Source of the DNA: Candidatus Harrisonbacteria bacterium
GTDB taxonomy: Bacteria; Patescibacteriota; Minisyncoccia; UBA6257; UBA11618
Assembly: GCA_023244835.1 (NCBI GenBank)
Contig: JAHFLN010000001.1
Coordinates: 4,912-68,911, forward strand
DNA: 64,000 nucleotides
Direction of reading: 5' to 3'
Numbering within the stretch: the first letter of the stretch is position 1; each line of letters begins with the position of its first letter. A program made the translations under genes and the position numbers. Below the pieces are notes generated by a model. The model did not search any database. It was not told where the DNA came from and saw nothing but the letters and a program-made list of their open reading frames with translations. Positions 35,548 through 55,209 of the stretch are shown here, one piece after another.

Positions 35548-35635
35548 GGAGGGGTCGCATAGCGGCCTAGTGCACCATCTTGGAAAGGTGGCATACCGAA
35601 AGGTATCGAGGGTTCGAATCCCTCCCCCTCCGCCA
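35548..35635 (+). tRNA. tRNA-Ser (anticodon GGA), class II with long variable arm, CCA encoded
   Basis: Acceptor GGAGGGG/CCCCTCC; anticodon stem CCATC/GGTGG; loop TTGGAAA; T-loop GGTTCGAATCC; TTGAAC-17-TATACT promoter upstream. Confidence 0.85.
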
Positions 35636-40784: not shown

Positions 40785-41402
40785 ATGCCCAACGCATCAG
40801 GCAACCTCTCCGTCCGCGAAGTTCTCGAACAGGCGTTCGCCTTGCTTCTTGAACATTTCAGCGTAACGGCCGTCGACCTGCCTTGCCGCGCGCAGGCGGA
40901 AATAGCCGACGACTCCTTCGTTCCCCATGAGCCCGCATTCGGCTTTATCGGTTACGATCGCGCGGCGCTCGTATGTCTTGTAGACGGCACCCGATGGGCG
41001 CTTAGCAATGGCCGTAAGTGCGGCCAGTATCCGGGCGATGAATACGATTCGGATATTGCCGCGGTCATCCTTACCGGATTTTCCGAAGATGACACGATAG
41101 AGCCCGCGCACCTCGGCTACGCGCTCGCTTCAAACGATCACTTCTTCCACTCCGCGATCGTCGCGTGTCGCGACGGGGGGTTCGGCGTCGCGAACGATTC
41201 GGTATTCCACCAAGCGACGAGCGCGCTCGTCCTGCCCCGCACTCCCGGCTTCGTCGCGACGCCTGCCATTACCGATACGCGGCGAGTCATTGACCCGGGC
41301 ACGATGCGCGTGCGCGTCGCACAGCCGGCGACCTATCGGCCGGACATCGTCCCATTTCTCGCGGATATGATCACCTTGATTATCAAAGGAGAAATCTCCT
41401 GA
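40785..41402 (+). CDS. Hypothetical protein
   Basis: AAAGGACAG Shine-Dalgarno; hairpin plus T-run downstream. Confidence 0.5.
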   Translation: MPNASGNLSVREVLEQAFALLLEHFSVTAVDLPCRAQAEIADDSFVPHEPAFGFIGYDRAALVCLVDGTRWALSNGRKCGQYPGDEYDSDIAAVILTGFSEDDTIEPAHLGYALASNDHFFHSAIVACRDGGFGVANDSVFHQATSALVLPRTPGFVATPAITDTRRVIDPGTMRVRVAQPATYRPDIVPFLADMITLIIKGEIS

Positions 41403-45966: not shown

Positions 45967-46263
45967 TTACGACTCAAGGATCGCGAGGATATCCGCCTCG
46001 TCGGCAACCAAATACTTCTTGCCGTCAAGCTCGACCTCGTCCGGCCCGTATTTCTTGAAAAGCACGAGGTCTCCCACCTTCACGGACATCGGATTCAGCT
46101 CCCCTCGGTCATTCCGCTTGCCCGCGCCGACCGCGAGCACGCGCCCCTTTACCGGCCGTTCTTTTTCCGCTGTATCCGGCAGGACGATGCCTGATTTCGT
46201 CATGCGGTCTTCTTCCATGGCATCGAGAAACACGCGATCAGCAATGGGTTTTATGGTCATCAT
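45967..46263 (-). CDS. groS: Co-chaperonin GroES (as the C-terminal 98 aa of a 328 aa ORF)
   Basis: MMTIKPIADRVFLD...GKRNDRGELNPMSVKVGDLVLF typical GroES; no stop separates it from the upstream nucleotidyltransferase-fold region. Confidence 0.85.
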   Translation of the reverse strand: MMTIKPIADRVFLDAMEEDRMTKSGIVLPDTAEKERPVKGRVLAVGAGKRNDRGELNPMSVKVGDLVLFKKYGPDEVELDGKKYLVADEADILAILES

Positions 46264-46953
46264 AGTACCTAGGAGTATATCCTGTTTTTTCCCATGGTCA
46301 AGAGCGCGAACGCTTTCTCCCGGCGCTTTTTTCGGACGGAAGCACAGCTCGACGCGGCTTTCCGAAACGCTGATGCGCGATTCGCTTGACGCGCCGAATC
46401 GAATGCTCTGCGCCGCGATCCGGCGCTCCTGAATACGCCTCATGAGCGCTTCGCCCCAGGCGCCGAATGCGAAATCGAAGAGCGTCTCCGCGCACGCGAC
46501 AAGCGGGATCTTCTCCTTCCTATAGCGATATCTCACATTCGCGAATATCCCCTCGCGCATCGCCCCTGATGCCGTAAGGAATTCCCCAATCGCCTCCCGC
46601 GTTCCCACGACGGGCACGAGCGACGCGGCGAGGGCCCGTGCATACGCGTCCTCCGGCGCGTCGAGGCGGGCATCCGTCGCTATAAAATGATTCAGGCAAA
46701 AGCCTCTGCCGCGCGCGGCGATATGCGTACGGAGTCCGAGCAAACGGAAAATCCCCAAACAGAAAAAACGCGCCGTATACATACGGCCCGGCCGCGTTCC
46801 GACGATCACATCCCAGTCGGAATTCCTATGGGCATCGCCTGTCGCGAGCGATCCCGACACGAGCACTAAGTCGACGAAGGGGATCCACTCGAAGATCCAG
46901 ACCTTCCCGAGCAGGCCGTGCCATGCGTGGTCGAAAATTCCTTTTTGGTCCAT
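46264..46953 (-). CDS. Nucleotidyltransferase-fold domain ORF continuous in-frame with groES
   Basis: Pol-beta-type motif LVSGSLATGDAHRNSDWDVIV (G[GS]-x9-13-DxD); ATG at 46953 three nt after the rmuC stop. Confidence 0.5.
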
Positions 46954-46959
46954 CAGGGG

Positions 46960-48036
46960 TTATGACTCCCCATCCTGCTCCTCCGCTCGCGGCTTTTCAA
47001 GCAGCGTTGCCTTTATTCCGCTCGATTCCCCCGTCACCTTCAACACATCCTTATCGATCTTTCCGAGCTCTTTGTATGCGGTATTGTACGCGTTCACCGC
47101 AGTGCCAAGATGCGTTCCGATTTTTTCAAAGTAACCCTGATATGCCCCCAGATGCCTGTCGAGATCCTGCACGCGCCGAATGATTATCTCGATCTCCTTG
47201 TGAAGATGCTCGCGGCGTATACCCTGGATAACCGTCTGCAAGTATGCGAGAAACGAGGTTGGTGAGACGATCACCACCTTCTTGTCCTTCATCGCGTACT
47301 CTATGAGATCCTGAGCGCTCGCCGTACCCACGCGGTTTACCAAGAGGTCATAATAGATCGCCTCGGCCGGAATAAACATGAACGCGAAATCCATCGTATC
47401 CTCCTCCGGCCGGACATATTTCGCCGTCTCGTCGATGCGATTCTTCAGGTCGGTCCTGAACGCTTTCTCGAGCCGCGCGCGTTCCTCGCCGTCCTTTGCC
47501 TCGACCAGGCGGTTGTAATTCTCCAAGCTGAATTTCGAGTCGATAGGGATCACCTTCTCCTGATAGAAGACTGCCGCATCAACGATATCCCCGTTCTTGA
47601 ACGCGTATTGCATCTGATATTGGCCGGGCGGAAAGACATTTTTTAGGAGGGTTTCCAAGAGGTATTCGCCGAGTATCCCCCGCTGCTTCGGATTTTTTAA
47701 AATATCCTCGAGTCCCCTGATCTGCTCCATACCGAGCGCGACCTGCTTGTTCGTCGCATCGAGCTTCACGAGCTTTTCGGCAACTTCCTTCATCATGTTC
47801 GCGCTCGAAGCAAACTGGCCGTGCGAAAGGCGATTCGATTCCATAAGCTTTTCGTCGAGCGACTTCCGCAAGCTTTCATTCGCCCGCGCCAATTCGGCCA
47901 TCTGGGCCTGAAGCATCAAGAAGCCCTGCTCGGATGCCCGATCTTCCGGAACATCGAGCTTCTTCCTTATGAGTATGAATAACCCCGTGAAGCCTACAAT
48001 GACAATGACGGCGAGGACCCATGTGCCGGATATCAT
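46960..48036 (-). CDS. rmuC: DNA recombination protein RmuC
   Basis: N-terminal TM, coiled-coil, RmuC-like C-terminal domain. Confidence 0.8.
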   Translation of the reverse strand: MISGTWVLAVIVIVGFTGLFILIRKKLDVPEDRASEQGFLMLQAQMAELARANESLRKSLDEKLMESNRLSHGQFASSANMMKEVAEKLVKLDATNKQVALGMEQIRGLEDILKNPKQRGILGEYLLETLLKNVFPPGQYQMQYAFKNGDIVDAAVFYQEKVIPIDSKFSLENYNRLVEAKDGEERARLEKAFRTDLKNRIDETAKYVRPEEDTMDFAFMFIPAEAIYYDLLVNRVGTASAQDLIEYAMKDKKVVIVSPTSFLAYLQTVIQGIRREHLHKEIEIIIRRVQDLDRHLGAYQGYFEKIGTHLGTAVNAYNTAYKELGKIDKDVLKVTGESSGIKATLLEKPRAEEQDGES

Positions 48037-48107
48037 CCGTTCAGGATATGCCAGCCGGGCAAAAAAAAATAGACGGAGCCGTTCCGTCAGTAACCTATAA
48101 AAAAATA

Positions 48108-48282
48108 AACGGTTGTCGACCCATCATACCCCTCCCATGCGCTCGTGATCTTGGGCGGGCTCACGAAGGAAATAGCCGTAGCCTGCAAACAGATCGCATG
48201 TCCAGGACTTCAACGCATCGCCAAGACGATACTCTTTCATGGACGACGTGTGACCGTGCAGTGATGGGCCGACAAACCGTTT
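48108..48282 (-). ncRNA. Candidate structured RNA 1: 20 bp terminal helix enclosing ~130 nt, intrinsic terminator at 48061-48088
   Basis: AAACGGTTGTCGACCCATCA (48108-48127) pairs with TGATGGGCCGACAAACCGTTT (48262-48282); TTGACG-17-TAAATT promoter-like at ~48285-48315 on minus. Confidence 0.35.
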
Positions 48283-48345
48283 AACCTTATTAATTTACAT
48301 TAATGACTCCATCGCGTCAATATCCGTCCGCACTGGGCAAAAAAA

Positions 48346-48511
48346 ATAGATAGCCGGTTCCTCGTATTTCCATCATGCGGCCTTTCGGAACATCGCTCCT
48401 GGAAATAGCCGAGAGGGCCTATGATCCGTATCCATGGCGTCTATGCCTCGCTGGCAACGTTAGCGAGACTCTTCCACGAGGGATCATAGCGAGGAACCGG
48501 TCGCTATCTAG
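48346..48511 (-). ncRNA. Candidate structured RNA 2 or complex terminator: 19 bp terminal helix plus T8
   Basis: ATAGATAGCCGGTTCCTCG pairs with CGAGGAACCGGTCGCTATCTAG; internal nested helices; A8 on plus strand = T8 on minus. Confidence 0.35.
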
Positions 48512-48543
48512 TACTTACACGGTAGTCTGAAAACTGCTTTGTG

Positions 48544-49272
48544 TCAATGACAGCTCGGATCGGCGGGGTTGATTTCGCAGAGTTGTGACTTCACGACCGT
48601 GACGGTCTTCGGAATCTCCACTGACTGGCCCCCCGCATTACCGCACTTCAGAGTATAGGTCGTCGTGCGCGGCGGCGTTACCGTTACTCCGCCGGAAGAA
48701 GGATCGGCGAGCTTGCCGACCGTCGGCAGTATGCGACACTCGTCGGCATCCTCGCATTGCCAGGTGAGGCGCGATGTCTTCTGAGGCGATATGAGAACTT
48801 TCGGCCCCGCATTAAAGGAACAAGCGATGTCGAAAAGATGCGGCGGTTCGACAGGCACGATGCACTTCGCGAGAGAAACCTTATATGTCGGCCCGTTGAA
48901 ATGAAGCCACCCTACCACGTCAGATCCCCATGCATATCCCGAAAGACTGCATCCCAAAGCTTCCGTTCCCACGACTTTAGGTCCGTATGTCGCCCCCTTC
49001 AGCTTCACGATTCCGTCCCAGTCCCCGGAATTCGCGGAAATGACATTCGAGCAATCACCGCCCTCGGTTGCCGAGCAGACCCGGGCAGTATCCCCCGCAA
49101 GCTTGATCCACCCCACATTCTCCGACCATGCATATCCTCCGAACGCTCCCGTTTCCTCGTCTATCGTTGCCTGGTACCCGGGACCCGCAAAGCCGACCCA
49201 GCCGATATTTTCCGACCACGCATGGCCGGAGAGCGAGACGAGCGCGAAGAGCGGAACGAACAGAAATCCCAT
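48544..49272 (-). CDS. Secreted protein with three internal YAWSENIGW-type repeats and Cys-rich C-terminal region
   Basis: Signal peptide MGFLFVPLFALVSLSGHA; repeats GHAWSENIGWVGFAGP, GGYAWSENVGWIKLAG, SGYAWGSDVVGWLHFNG. Confidence 0.6.
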   Translation of the reverse strand: MGFLFVPLFALVSLSGHAWSENIGWVGFAGPGYQATIDEETGAFGGYAWSENVGWIKLAGDTARVCSATEGGDCSNVISANSGDWDGIVKLKGATYGPKVVGTEALGCSLSGYAWGSDVVGWLHFNGPTYKVSLAKCIVPVEPPHLFDIACSFNAGPKVLISPQKTSRLTWQCEDADECRILPTVGKLADPSSGGVTVTPPRTTTYTLKCGNAGGQSVEIPKTVTVVKSQLCEINPADPSCH

Positions 49273-54327: not shown

Positions 54328-54335
54328 ATGAGCAG

Positions 54336-54430
54336 TATACCCCGTGTTACAAATCCGACCATATATGACCCGTCATATTAGCTCGTCCATAGCGTTTCTA
54401 CACCACGTCGGATTTGTAACACGGGGTATA
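54336..54430. repeat. Family-1 palindromic element: perfect 24 bp inverted repeat TATACCCCGTGTTACAAATCCGAC / GTCGGATTTGTAACACGGGGTATA
   Basis: Arms 54336-54359 and 54407-54430; 47 bp spacer; begins 9 nt from cdaA start codon. Confidence 0.8.
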
Positions 54431-54440
54431 CCTCGTCGTG

Positions 54441-54505: not shown

Positions 54506-55168
54506 CTACAGCGCGATCAGAATATCCTTCTTTCCTCCCGCAACCACATCGATCGGCATCATTTTTATAGATTCATTCGGAATGCCGGTGTCGTTCGAAA
54601 GCGTACGCACCTTTACCTCGTCGTACGCGATAGCCGCGAGCGATACGGTGAAGATATTCGTCACGGAACCTGCCTGAACGGGCTTATAACCGTCATAGAC
54701 CTGTATCCATCCGCCGTTCGCGTCGGCTACGCGATACGGATTATGCACGAAGATTTCGCGCACCGTTACCGCCGTAGGCGACGATACCGAGAACGACACC
54801 TCGCCCTTCCCTACCGCGGCCGGAACGGCTGTTCCCTGCGCAGGAGCTTCGGGCATCGAAGGAGAGACCGCTTCTTCCGCCGGACCCGCGCCCGCAGGCG
54901 GCATGGTGTCTAGAACATCGGCCCCGGTCGATGTCGCTTCCTCCGCCGCCTCGGTCGATGTCGAGACTGCTTCTTCCGCCGCCGGCATGCCAGCAGTCGA
55001 TGACGACATGAGAAGCTTAACCCCTACGACTACGATTACGAGCACCAGTATGACTATGGCGAGATTAGTGCCTGCCTGACCCTTATCCTCTTCAGGAGCC
55101 TTATGCTCCCCATAGTATGACGCGCCATTACCCACCCGATTTCCCTGCTCCGATCCTATTGGTTCCAT
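54506..55168 (-). CDS. Membrane-anchored hypothetical protein with Ala/Glu/Pro-rich linker
   Basis: TM helix then low-complexity linker and C-terminal beta-rich domain. Confidence 0.5.
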   Translation of the reverse strand: MEPIGSEQGNRVGNGASYYGEHKAPEEDKGQAGTNLAIVILVLVIVVVGVKLLMSSSTAGMPAAEEAVSTSTEAAEEATSTGADVLDTMPPAGAGPAEEAVSPSMPEAPAQGTAVPAAVGKGEVSFSVSSPTAVTVREIFVHNPYRVADANGGWIQVYDGYKPVQAGSVTNIFTVSLAAIAYDEVKVRTLSNDTGIPNESIKMMPIDVVAGGKKDILIAL

Positions 55169-55209
55169 ATGCGCCTCATGGTAGGGCGAAGCATACCGAA
55201 CGTCAACAC

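Follow-up and report, generated by a model that had tools for sequence, protein, structure and literature searches.

The 64-kb stretch of contig JAHFLN010000001.1 analysed here (the window) comes from the genome of an uncultivated, ultra-small member of the Patescibacteria (candidate phyla radiation, CPR; Paceibacteria-like). The best matches to its RmuC protein among GTDB species representatives are metagenome-assembled genomes of Paceibacterota/Parcubacteria, with just 50-61% identity. The underlying metagenome has the ENA accessions ERZ27296333 / SRR14366772, and that of L204, a relative described below, has ERZ27280317. Our subject is a pair of structured elements, E2 and E1, housed in the gap between rmuC and the last gene of an operon of secreted proteins, which encodes 242 amino acids (aa). 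All of the genes around E2 and E1 lie on the minus strand, along which the order is 242-aa gene, E2, E1 (about 55 nucleotides (nt) downstream of E2), a small terminator hairpin and rmuC (Table 1). A preliminary description had flagged E2 as a candidate structured non-coding RNA (ncRNA) or giant terminator and had suggested that E2 and E1 are a diverged tandem duplication of an RNA gene. The Patescibacteria make up a large share of bacterial diversity and have tiny genomes with few recognisable regulators; to our knowledge, almost nothing is known of their ncRNAs.

Table 1. Features of the interval from the 242-aa gene to rmuC, in order along the minus strand (positions are those of the window; bodies and gap precede their parts)
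Feature	Position	Strand	Remark
242-aa gene	48544-49272	minus	last gene of an operon of Pfam-less secreted (surface) proteins
Gap between 242-aa gene and rmuC	48037-48543		507 nt, houses E2 and E1
E2 -35, TTGACA	48542-48547	minus	overlaps TGA stop codon of 242-aa gene
E2 -10, TACCGT (TAnnnT)	48519-48524	minus	17-nt spacer
E2 RNA body (three-way junction)	48347-48510	minus	minimum free energy fold, helix list, covariation
E2 P1a	48503-48510/48347-48354	minus	
E2 GAC bulge	48500-48502	minus	
E2 P1b	48490-48499/48355-48364	minus	
E2 P2 base	48481-48489/48419-48427	minus	
E2 P2a inner helix	48474-48479/48432-48437	minus	
E2 P2b inner helix	48462-48469/48445-48452	minus	
E2 J2/3	48408-48418	minus	
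E2 P3 base	48401-48407/48365-48371	minus	
E2 U8 tract	48339-48346	minus	presumed transcript end, abuts P1 3' strand
E1 promoter, TTGACG-17-TAAATT	48292-48320	minus	also called by generic promoter scan
E1 RNA body	48106-48283	minus	paralogue of E2; inverted-repeat search, fold, covariation
E1 P1a	48275-48283/48106-48114	minus	
E1 U bulge	48274	minus	
E1 P1b	48262-48273/48115-48126	minus	
E1 P2 base	48257-48261/48183-48187	minus	
E1 J2/3	48175-48182	minus	
E1 P3 base	48169-48174/48127-48132	minus	three G.U pairs
E1 U7 tract	48099-48105	minus	abuts P1
Small classical terminator	48061-48088 (hairpin 48072-48088)	minus	GACGGA-ACGGC-UCCGUC, then UA and U9; terminator scan
Putative rmuC -10, TATCCT	48043-48048	minus	predicted; 6 nt before ATG (48036-48034), no -35
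rmuC	46960-48036	minus	followed by the open reading frame (ORF) containing groES, and by groEL, lemA and htpX

Fold and transcription signals of E2 and E1

Everything that the preliminary description had read from the letters of E2 was confirmed, the closing helix included. The 11 nt at 48354-48364 are 100% complementary to 48490-48500, 125 nt apart, and the pairing extends past a 3-nt bulge to 48347-48354 and 48503-48510, giving 18 base pairs (bp) in all. This helix, P1, closes a three-way junction and runs straight into U8; the T8 run that had been seen on the minus strand after the structure lies directly at 48339-48346. The nested helices named earlier appear in the minimum free energy (MFE) folds of both strands: TATTTCC (48365-48371) pairs with GGAAATA (48401-48407) as the base of P3, CTATGATCC (48419-48427) pairs with GGATCATAG (48481-48489) as the base of P2, and the CTCGCT/AGCGAG pairing is found within 48445-48469 as P2b. 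The minus-strand MFE of E2 is -75.7 kcal/mol, with a z-score of -4.0, and the plus-strand fold of the same region has a z-score of -4.2; in neither case was any of 200 dinucleotide shuffles as good. The terminal loop of P2b (48453-48461, minus strand; AACGUUGCC) holds a self-complementary AACGUU, so that loop-loop dimerisation of E2 is possible, and the other members of the family described below are without it. A kissing loop at this site was rejected as a family feature since it is not conserved.

E1 has the same design, with a closing helix of 21 bp that contains one bulged U and is followed by U7, and its fold has a z-score of -3.4. E1 and E2 are diverged by about 50% and share an identical 11-mer, CGGCUAUUUCC in the RNA, which appears as exact copies of GGAAATAGCCG at 48168-48178 and 48401-48411. 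Several shorter motifs and the AAAAAAATAGA-type tails are likewise common to both, in agreement with the recurrence of motifs that had been noticed before. The RNAalifold consensus of E1 and E2 contains 37 pairs, 15 of which are changed on both sides. Downstream of E1, the sequence of the small terminator (GGAACGGCUCCGUCUAUUUUUUUUUGCCC) resembles the 3' end of E2, so it has probably been left over from the end of an ancestral element. A homologue of this small terminator (...CCGGCTATTTTTTTTTGCC) precedes rmuC in the related genome L204.

Each element has a promoter-like sequence at the foot of its closing helix. In E2, the -10 hexamer ends 7 nt before C48511, and P1 begins at the next nt (48510); in E1, the distance from the promoter to the RNA 5' end at 48284 is again 7 nt, the first P1 pair being at 48283. 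The E2 promoter was missed by a stricter promoter scan because its -10 hexamer matches the consensus at just three of six positions. The pattern TTGAC[AG]-N17/18-TAnnnT has six matches on the two strands of the window, compared with 1.2 expected from shuffles, and two of the six are the E1 and E2 promoters. At the other end of the elements, U-tracts are confined to the minus (sense) strand, and 3 of the 11 minus-strand runs of at least seven T in the window fall within the 507-nt gap. P1 with its U-tract is not called by a generic terminator scan, which does call the small hairpin at 48072-48088; the loop enclosed by P1 is 125-150 nt long, versus 3-8 nt in classical terminators.

Relatives, covariation and descent

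We located the contigs that encode the closest RmuC proteins (66-81% identity); the 242-aa gene adjoins rmuC in every one of them that includes the region upstream of rmuC. Four further members of the family lie at this same locus, three in L204/L205 and one in L209/L210. In L204/L205 (74% RmuC identity), a 674-nt gap holds three elements, EA, EB and EC. EA has the promoter TTGACA-18-TATGAT and no U-tract, whereas EB lies 5 nt from EA, has no promoter of its own and ends in U7; the 5-nt spacing implies a dimeric transcript. EC has the promoter TTGACG-18-TATACT and a U7 end. The single element of L209/L210 (78% RmuC identity), F1, is shorter (124 nt), with the promoter TTGACG-17-TACTAT and a U9 end. 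In five of five independent units (E2, E1, EA, EC and F1) the pattern TTGAC[AG]-17/18-TAnnnT ends 7 nt before an RNA 5' end that is itself 0-2 nt ahead of the first P1 pair, and U7-U9 follows directly after P1 in E2, E1, EB, EC and F1.

All six members, folded singly, adopt the same P1/P2/P3 plan. In P1, a bulge or small internal loop separates an outer helix (5-9 bp) from an inner one (9-14 bp), the total being about 18-22 bp with a duplex energy of -29 to -36 kcal/mol. P2 follows directly after P1 (J1/2 is 0 nt in all six) and begins with an invariant C-G pair, the interior of this arm being variable (19-71 nt). The single-stranded J2/3 is 7-11 nt long and reads GCUACGGC, GCCCUCUCGGC, GUAGAGCGAC, GCUACGCGC, GCUAUGC and ACUACGGU in the members. 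The conserved base of P3, UAUUYC:GRAAUA, abuts the 3' strand of P1, and there are no unpaired nucleotides at the P1/P2 and P3/P1 contacts of the three-way junction.

We aligned the P1, P2-base, J2/3 and P3-base segments of the six copies, registering them by hand and verifying that the blocks are contiguous substrings. In this core alignment, whose hand registration inflates such figures, 98.4% of 182 cells form standard pairs and 25 of the 34 core pairs are changed on both sides, including 9 of 9 pairs in P1a and 9 of 14 in P1b. In 500 column shuffles, not one of the five measures used was ever equalled, and pairing falls to 37-42% in controls in which the partner is slid by 1-3 columns. The sense MFE is below the antisense MFE in all six members, by 1.1-10.8 kcal/mol, and the core contains 11 G.U cells versus one A.C cell. 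The bias of the folds and the excess of G.U pairs both accord with selection acting on the minus-strand RNA. No conserved ORF was found in the gap, where the ORFs of the window share neither frame nor sequence with those of L204.

The junctions divide the members into two types. A CCUCG/CGAGG junction is common to E2 and EA, and a CAUCA/UGAUG junction with a P2 that starts CUG[CU]A is common to E1, EB and EC, indicating that the two subtypes predate the split between the window genome and L204. The E2-type element precedes the E1-type element in both genomes. Judged by these shared junctions, the two types are ancient paralogues, which bears out the tandem duplication proposed in the preliminary description; the minus-strand structured ncRNA that it proposed gains support from the promoter before and the U-tract after each closing helix and from the compensatory changes within a common architecture.

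Not all relatives carry an element. At least seven are without one and have either a gap of only 41-75 nt (L201, L203, L206/L207, L334 and the P0012 contig) or a gap with a long perfect palindrome (L212 and L213). In a neighbour-joining tree of RmuC, L204 is basal, followed by the window genome and then by a clade of L210 and element-less genomes. This topology fits one gain, a tandem duplication and later losses, and does not suggest repeated insertion.

The patchy presence of the elements, with copy numbers from 0 to 3, together with their long terminal inverted repeats (TIRs) and the non-homologous inserts found in the same gap of L211, are features that selfish or mobile DNA would have, whether a relative of miniature inverted-repeat transposable elements (MITEs) or a DNA palindrome, such as a recombination site, that is repeatedly inserted at a hotspot. 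We nevertheless consider mobile DNA very improbable. The supposed TIRs differ wholly between copies and yet remain complementary, which points to selection for complementarity and not for a sequence bound by a transposase, and the G.U pairs are biased towards one strand. Neither a flanking direct repeat nor a target-site duplication is seen at E1 or E2, neither the descriptor scan nor the covariance-model search described below found another copy in the window, and nothing similar turned up in phages or plasmids. The RmuC tree, for its part, is consistent with vertical inheritance and loss. Divergent but pairing P1 arms, the absence of a target-site duplication and the lack of dispersed copies make a MITE-type element in particular unlikely.

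The inserts of the relatives were recorded in their own right. At the same intergenic site, L211 (2636-2860) has TTGACT-17-TATACT, two tandem long hairpins (z-score of -4.35) and U7, a non-homologous candidate small RNA (sRNA). A long perfect palindrome lies just upstream of rmuC-groES-groEL in L212 (about 975-1012), L213 (about 2906-2947) and L211 (about 2913-2950), and its right arm embeds an extended -10-like TGnTAnnnT, for example TTTCACTATCATACCACGCGGCCGCGTGGTATGATAGTGAAA in L213. This palindrome could be the operator of a heat-shock repressor, with a role in this CPR clade like that of CIRCE (controlling inverted repeat of chaperone expression).

Searches for known families and for further members gave little beyond this locus. 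The Rfam scan that had been proposed for E2 matched no family: among the 4227 covariance models of Rfam 15, the window at gathering threshold gave only one tRNA, at 35548, and the interval 47900-48700 at E<=10 gave only RAGATH-25 (11.8 bits), inside rmuC. The L204 and L210 elements have no common or significant Rfam match. A scan for tRNA and transfer-messenger RNA found none in the E1/E2 region; the tRNA-Ser(GGA) at 35548-35635 (plus strand) is the sole Rfam or ARAGORN match in the window. Comparison of the elements with phages and plasmids by blastn gave no match. In viral contigs, the exact pattern AAGAGTNTCG...CGGCTATTTCC had 0 matches, and the 120 matches listed for the looser CGGCTATTTCC...CGCATG were all unrelated. 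In metagenomes, the E1-type triple motif had 0 matches, and a pattern of P3 plus U-tract, with at least 120 matches, yielded no convincing member among the matches listed after screening for P1 duplex energy and promoters. A metagenome match in L287 was rejected as a plain hairpin, and L311 (1976-2126) has a 15-bp closing helix and T9 around three copies of CGCTATTTCGAAC, is promoterless and is probably unrelated.

Our descriptor scan, which combines a U-tract, a strong long-range duplex and a promoter, is blind to EA (no U-tract) and to EB (promoterless, with a duplex energy below the cutoff). It recovered only E1 and E2 in the window and only EC and F1 in 90 related loci, plus one unrelated candidate sRNA, unannotated, in the distant CPR locus L070 (4361-4547, after rplU), where TTGACA-16-TACCAT precedes about 150 nt of structured sequence and T7. 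A covariance model built from the core matches only E1, E2, F1 and part of EA, and neither it nor the descriptor scan found a member in 80 GTDB rmuC loci (50-61% RmuC identity). With its filters off, the model missed even E1 and E2 and gave short hairpins only, presumably because a core model cannot span the long arm inserts. Among these hairpins, the matches on both strands at 2828-2883 and 54335-54431 (15.5 and 12.2 bits) are short and palindromic and are probably bidirectional terminators. A literature search on structured or small RNAs of CPR/Patescibacteria found nothing relevant. The E1/E2 family is a previously undescribed, lineage-restricted structured sRNA family, and the kind of object is ordinary.

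Putative downstream promoters and the proposed role of the elements

Whether the elements serve the genes downstream of them depends on where those genes are transcribed from. The 17 nt around the putative rmuC -10 hexamer (TGGCATATCCTGAACGG) are identical in L204, and a TATCCT that is conserved in L204 and lies 6 nt before the ATG suggests a leaderless rmuC mRNA. From this sequence, rmuC probably starts from its own promoter. Likewise, a promoter for groES (TTGACC-16-TATACT; 46261-46301, minus strand) lies inside the ORF at 45967-46953, 10 nt before an internal ATG (M231), so groES is probably transcribed alone, as an almost leaderless mRNA. In the 328-aa 'GroES' ORF, GroES itself is preceded in frame by an N-terminal region of about 230 aa that weakly matches nucleotidyltransferases. 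Because groES has its own promoter, the elements would not be needed to drive the chaperone operon, and we rejected a heat-shock leader of groESL for the same reason. There is also a promoter-like sequence at 55177-55206 (minus strand) before the gene at 54506-55168, and both there and at rmuC the -10 hexamers are 6-9 nt from the ATG. The hexamer positions suggest that leaderless or near-leaderless mRNAs may be common in the window genome.

These signals bear on the proposal that the elements are purely cis-acting devices with no function as free RNAs. On that view they would be oversized terminators or insulators of the surface-protein operon, or else an attenuator leader controlling whether transcription from the strong promoters upstream continues into rmuC. 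All members share their location, between the 242-aa gene and rmuC, and their orientation, and in the window three U-tracts are stacked within 507 nt. There is no strong rmuC -35 between the last terminator and the ATG, and in L210 no good promoter other than that of F1 lies upstream of rmuC. The giant-terminator half of the preliminary description holds to the extent that the closing helix and U8 of E2 would also stop transcripts arriving from the 242-aa gene. However, a terminator needs no private promoter exactly at its 5' end, as found in five of five units, and it needs neither a conserved junction nor two paralogue types kept across genomes; these features it leaves unexplained. P1, with its 18-22 bp and -29 to -36 kcal/mol and no evident antiterminator pairing, is the very reverse of the switchable P1 that riboswitches have. 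Relatives whose gap measures just 41-75 nt do without any element, and groES has its own promoter. We therefore regard a purely cis-acting role as unlikely.

The best explanation, to which we assign a probability of about 0.6, is that E2 and E1 are two independently transcribed genes of lineage-restricted structured small ncRNAs of about 125-185 nt. The structure, strand, promoter and terminator signals, homology, covariation and lack of coding potential were established here by computation, whereas we infer that E1 and E2 transcripts accumulate, and what they do. In the mechanism that we propose, transcription of each unit would start about 7 nt after the -10 hexamer of a sigma70-type promoter. 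P2 and P3 would fold first, and the 3' strand of P1 would then zip up from the junction as it emerges. P1 and the U-tract would thereby act as an intrinsic terminator, in which the already folded RNA as a whole takes the place of the 'loop'. The RNA released would be compact, clamped and nuclease-resistant, its ends paired and followed by a U-tail. This P1/U-tract device may also end transcripts of the surface-protein operon and insulate rmuC, and the arms and P1 would be variable structural struts around a conserved junction.

What such RNAs would do can be approached through what is conserved in them. Since J2/3 and the base of P3 are conserved while the arms and P1 vary freely, we favour recognition of the junction by a protein, and the model that we tentatively put forward, at somewhat less than even odds, is a trans-acting RNA that binds a protein at J2/3 and the P3 base and acts as a scaffold or sponge.

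The same conserved segment could instead be a seed by which base-pairing sRNAs recognise an mRNA, CGGCUAUUUCC spanning J2/3 and the 5' strand of P3, with the rest of the fold providing stability and a terminator with a U-tail. These 11 nt are identical in two elements that are otherwise about 50% diverged, with related sequences in F1 (CGGUUAUUUC) and EA (CUAUUCC), and tandem paralogues are typical of seed-sharing sRNAs such as OmrA/B, PrrF1/2 and Qrr. An exact copy of GGAAATAGCCG, the complement of CGGCUAUUUCC, occurs once elsewhere in the window, at 40898-40908 (plus strand); this complement, GGAAAUAGCCG, lies on the sense strand of the ORF at 40785-41402, with about 0.03 exact matches expected per window. 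However, the candidate target is at codon 38, deep in the coding region rather than at a start site, with complementarity of at most 11-12 nt. Moreover, the P3 helix hides 7 of the 11 nt in every member, the motif is loosely kept in EB and EC, and we know of no Hfq- or ProQ-type context for this lineage. On balance, a base-pairing role seems rather doubtful.

Several observations weigh against two independent genes for structured ncRNAs with a protein partner. The promoters and terminators of the elements are consensus matches only, and a closing helix that spans 125-150 nt is no classical terminator and was not called as one. Known members of the family come from a single locus in three genomes; at least seven close relatives lack it, which makes it dispensable, and the two metagenome pattern scans gave no additional members. 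Hand registration fits the core alignment to the structure, and the pairing statistics come from six sequences in three genomes. The protein partner is hypothetical, and the 11-mer could equally be a base-pairing seed. Finally, the weak rmuC promoter, with no -35, makes control of rmuC by read-through possible.

If E2 and E1 are indeed ncRNA genes, the locus is a clean and testable CPR example, with two compact units (three in one relative) that have textbook promoters and terminators. The locus also offers indirect hints on how genes are expressed in the CPR: its promoters follow a -35/-10 consensus like that of E. coli, transcription would begin about 7 nt downstream of the -10 hexamer, and leaderless mRNAs are likely. 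Should a partner protein or target be found, the elements would be among the first lineage-specific riboregulators described for the CPR; should none be found, they would be one more orphan structured sRNA of narrow distribution. A more far-reaching idea, which we offer as speculation and consider improbable, is that the elements are RNA subunits of a CPR-specific ribonucleoprotein in which the conserved junction (J2/3 plus the UAUUYC:GRAAUA helix) docks a protein, that an RNA inside a terminator is a general route to nuclease-proof RNAs in these reduced genomes, and that the locus, which in L211 has a non-homologous structured RNA, is a hotspot of RNA-gene birth, duplication and loss.

Comparison with known RNAs

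Three further readings were tried and rejected. Motifs resembling C/D boxes (AUGAUGA/CUG) are Watson-Crick strands of P1b and P2 and are absent from E2, EA and F1; the GGA motifs expected of a CsrA-type sponge lie outside conserved loops; and there is no reverse transcriptase gene nearby, as a retron ncRNA would have.

6S RNA (SsrS) resembles the elements in length and in its long stem formed from both ends, and it too is independently transcribed, as well as being abundant, regulatory and present as paralogues in some phyla. Its function depends on a large central bubble whose single-stranded 5' side imitates an open promoter, whereas the centre of E1 and E2 is a tight three-way junction, and the Rfam 6S models do not match the elements. 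Since the central bubble is absent (J1/2 is 0 nt in all six members), identity with 6S RNA is excluded.

Three-way-junction riboswitches, such as those for purines and thiamine pyrophosphate, also have a junction with conserved nucleotides closed by a P1 and located 5' of a gene, and tandem cases occur. Unlike theirs, the P1 of E1 and E2 (18-22 bp) is not switchable, and there is no expression platform or antiterminator: a duplex-energy scan and the folds of the six members revealed no alternative pairing that competes with P1. Each unit of the E1/E2 type has its own terminator, and the elements are dispensable where relatives keep rmuC. A long P1 with no competing fold, the units' own terminators and the rmuC orthologues that lack an element together make a riboswitch or attenuator of rmuC unlikely.

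The phi29-type pRNA (RF00044) has a similar size (about 120-174 nt), a bulged 5'/3' helix, a central three-way junction with two arms, and low sequence but high structure conservation. However, the neighbours of E1 and E2 are rmuC, groESL and surface-protein genes, the elements have no similarity to phage records and no Rfam match, and the P2 and P3 loops of the family are without conserved mutual complementarity.

With intrinsic terminators the elements share a helix followed by 7-9 U at the end of an operon, and the helix of E1 and E2 probably does terminate transcription. They depart from them in having a structured insert of 125-150 nt as the 'loop' and a promoter of their own at the foot of the helix.

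The bacterial Y RNAs (YrlA/Yrn1, partners of Rsr/Ro60), whose features were reportedly described by Chen et al. in 2014 and by the Wolin laboratory, differ from the E1/E2 family in that their Ro-binding stem is conserved in sequence, whereas the P1 of E1 and E2 varies freely. The family has no tRNA-like T-arm motif, no Rfam model of the Y-RNA type matches it at E<=10, and neither rsr nor rtcB is among the called neighbours of the locus. The resemblance is topological only: Y RNAs are reported to be about 100-180 nt long, with a long bulged 5'/3' stem clamping a branched domain, to occur often as two to four tandem paralogous genes, and to act through protein binding rather than base pairing.

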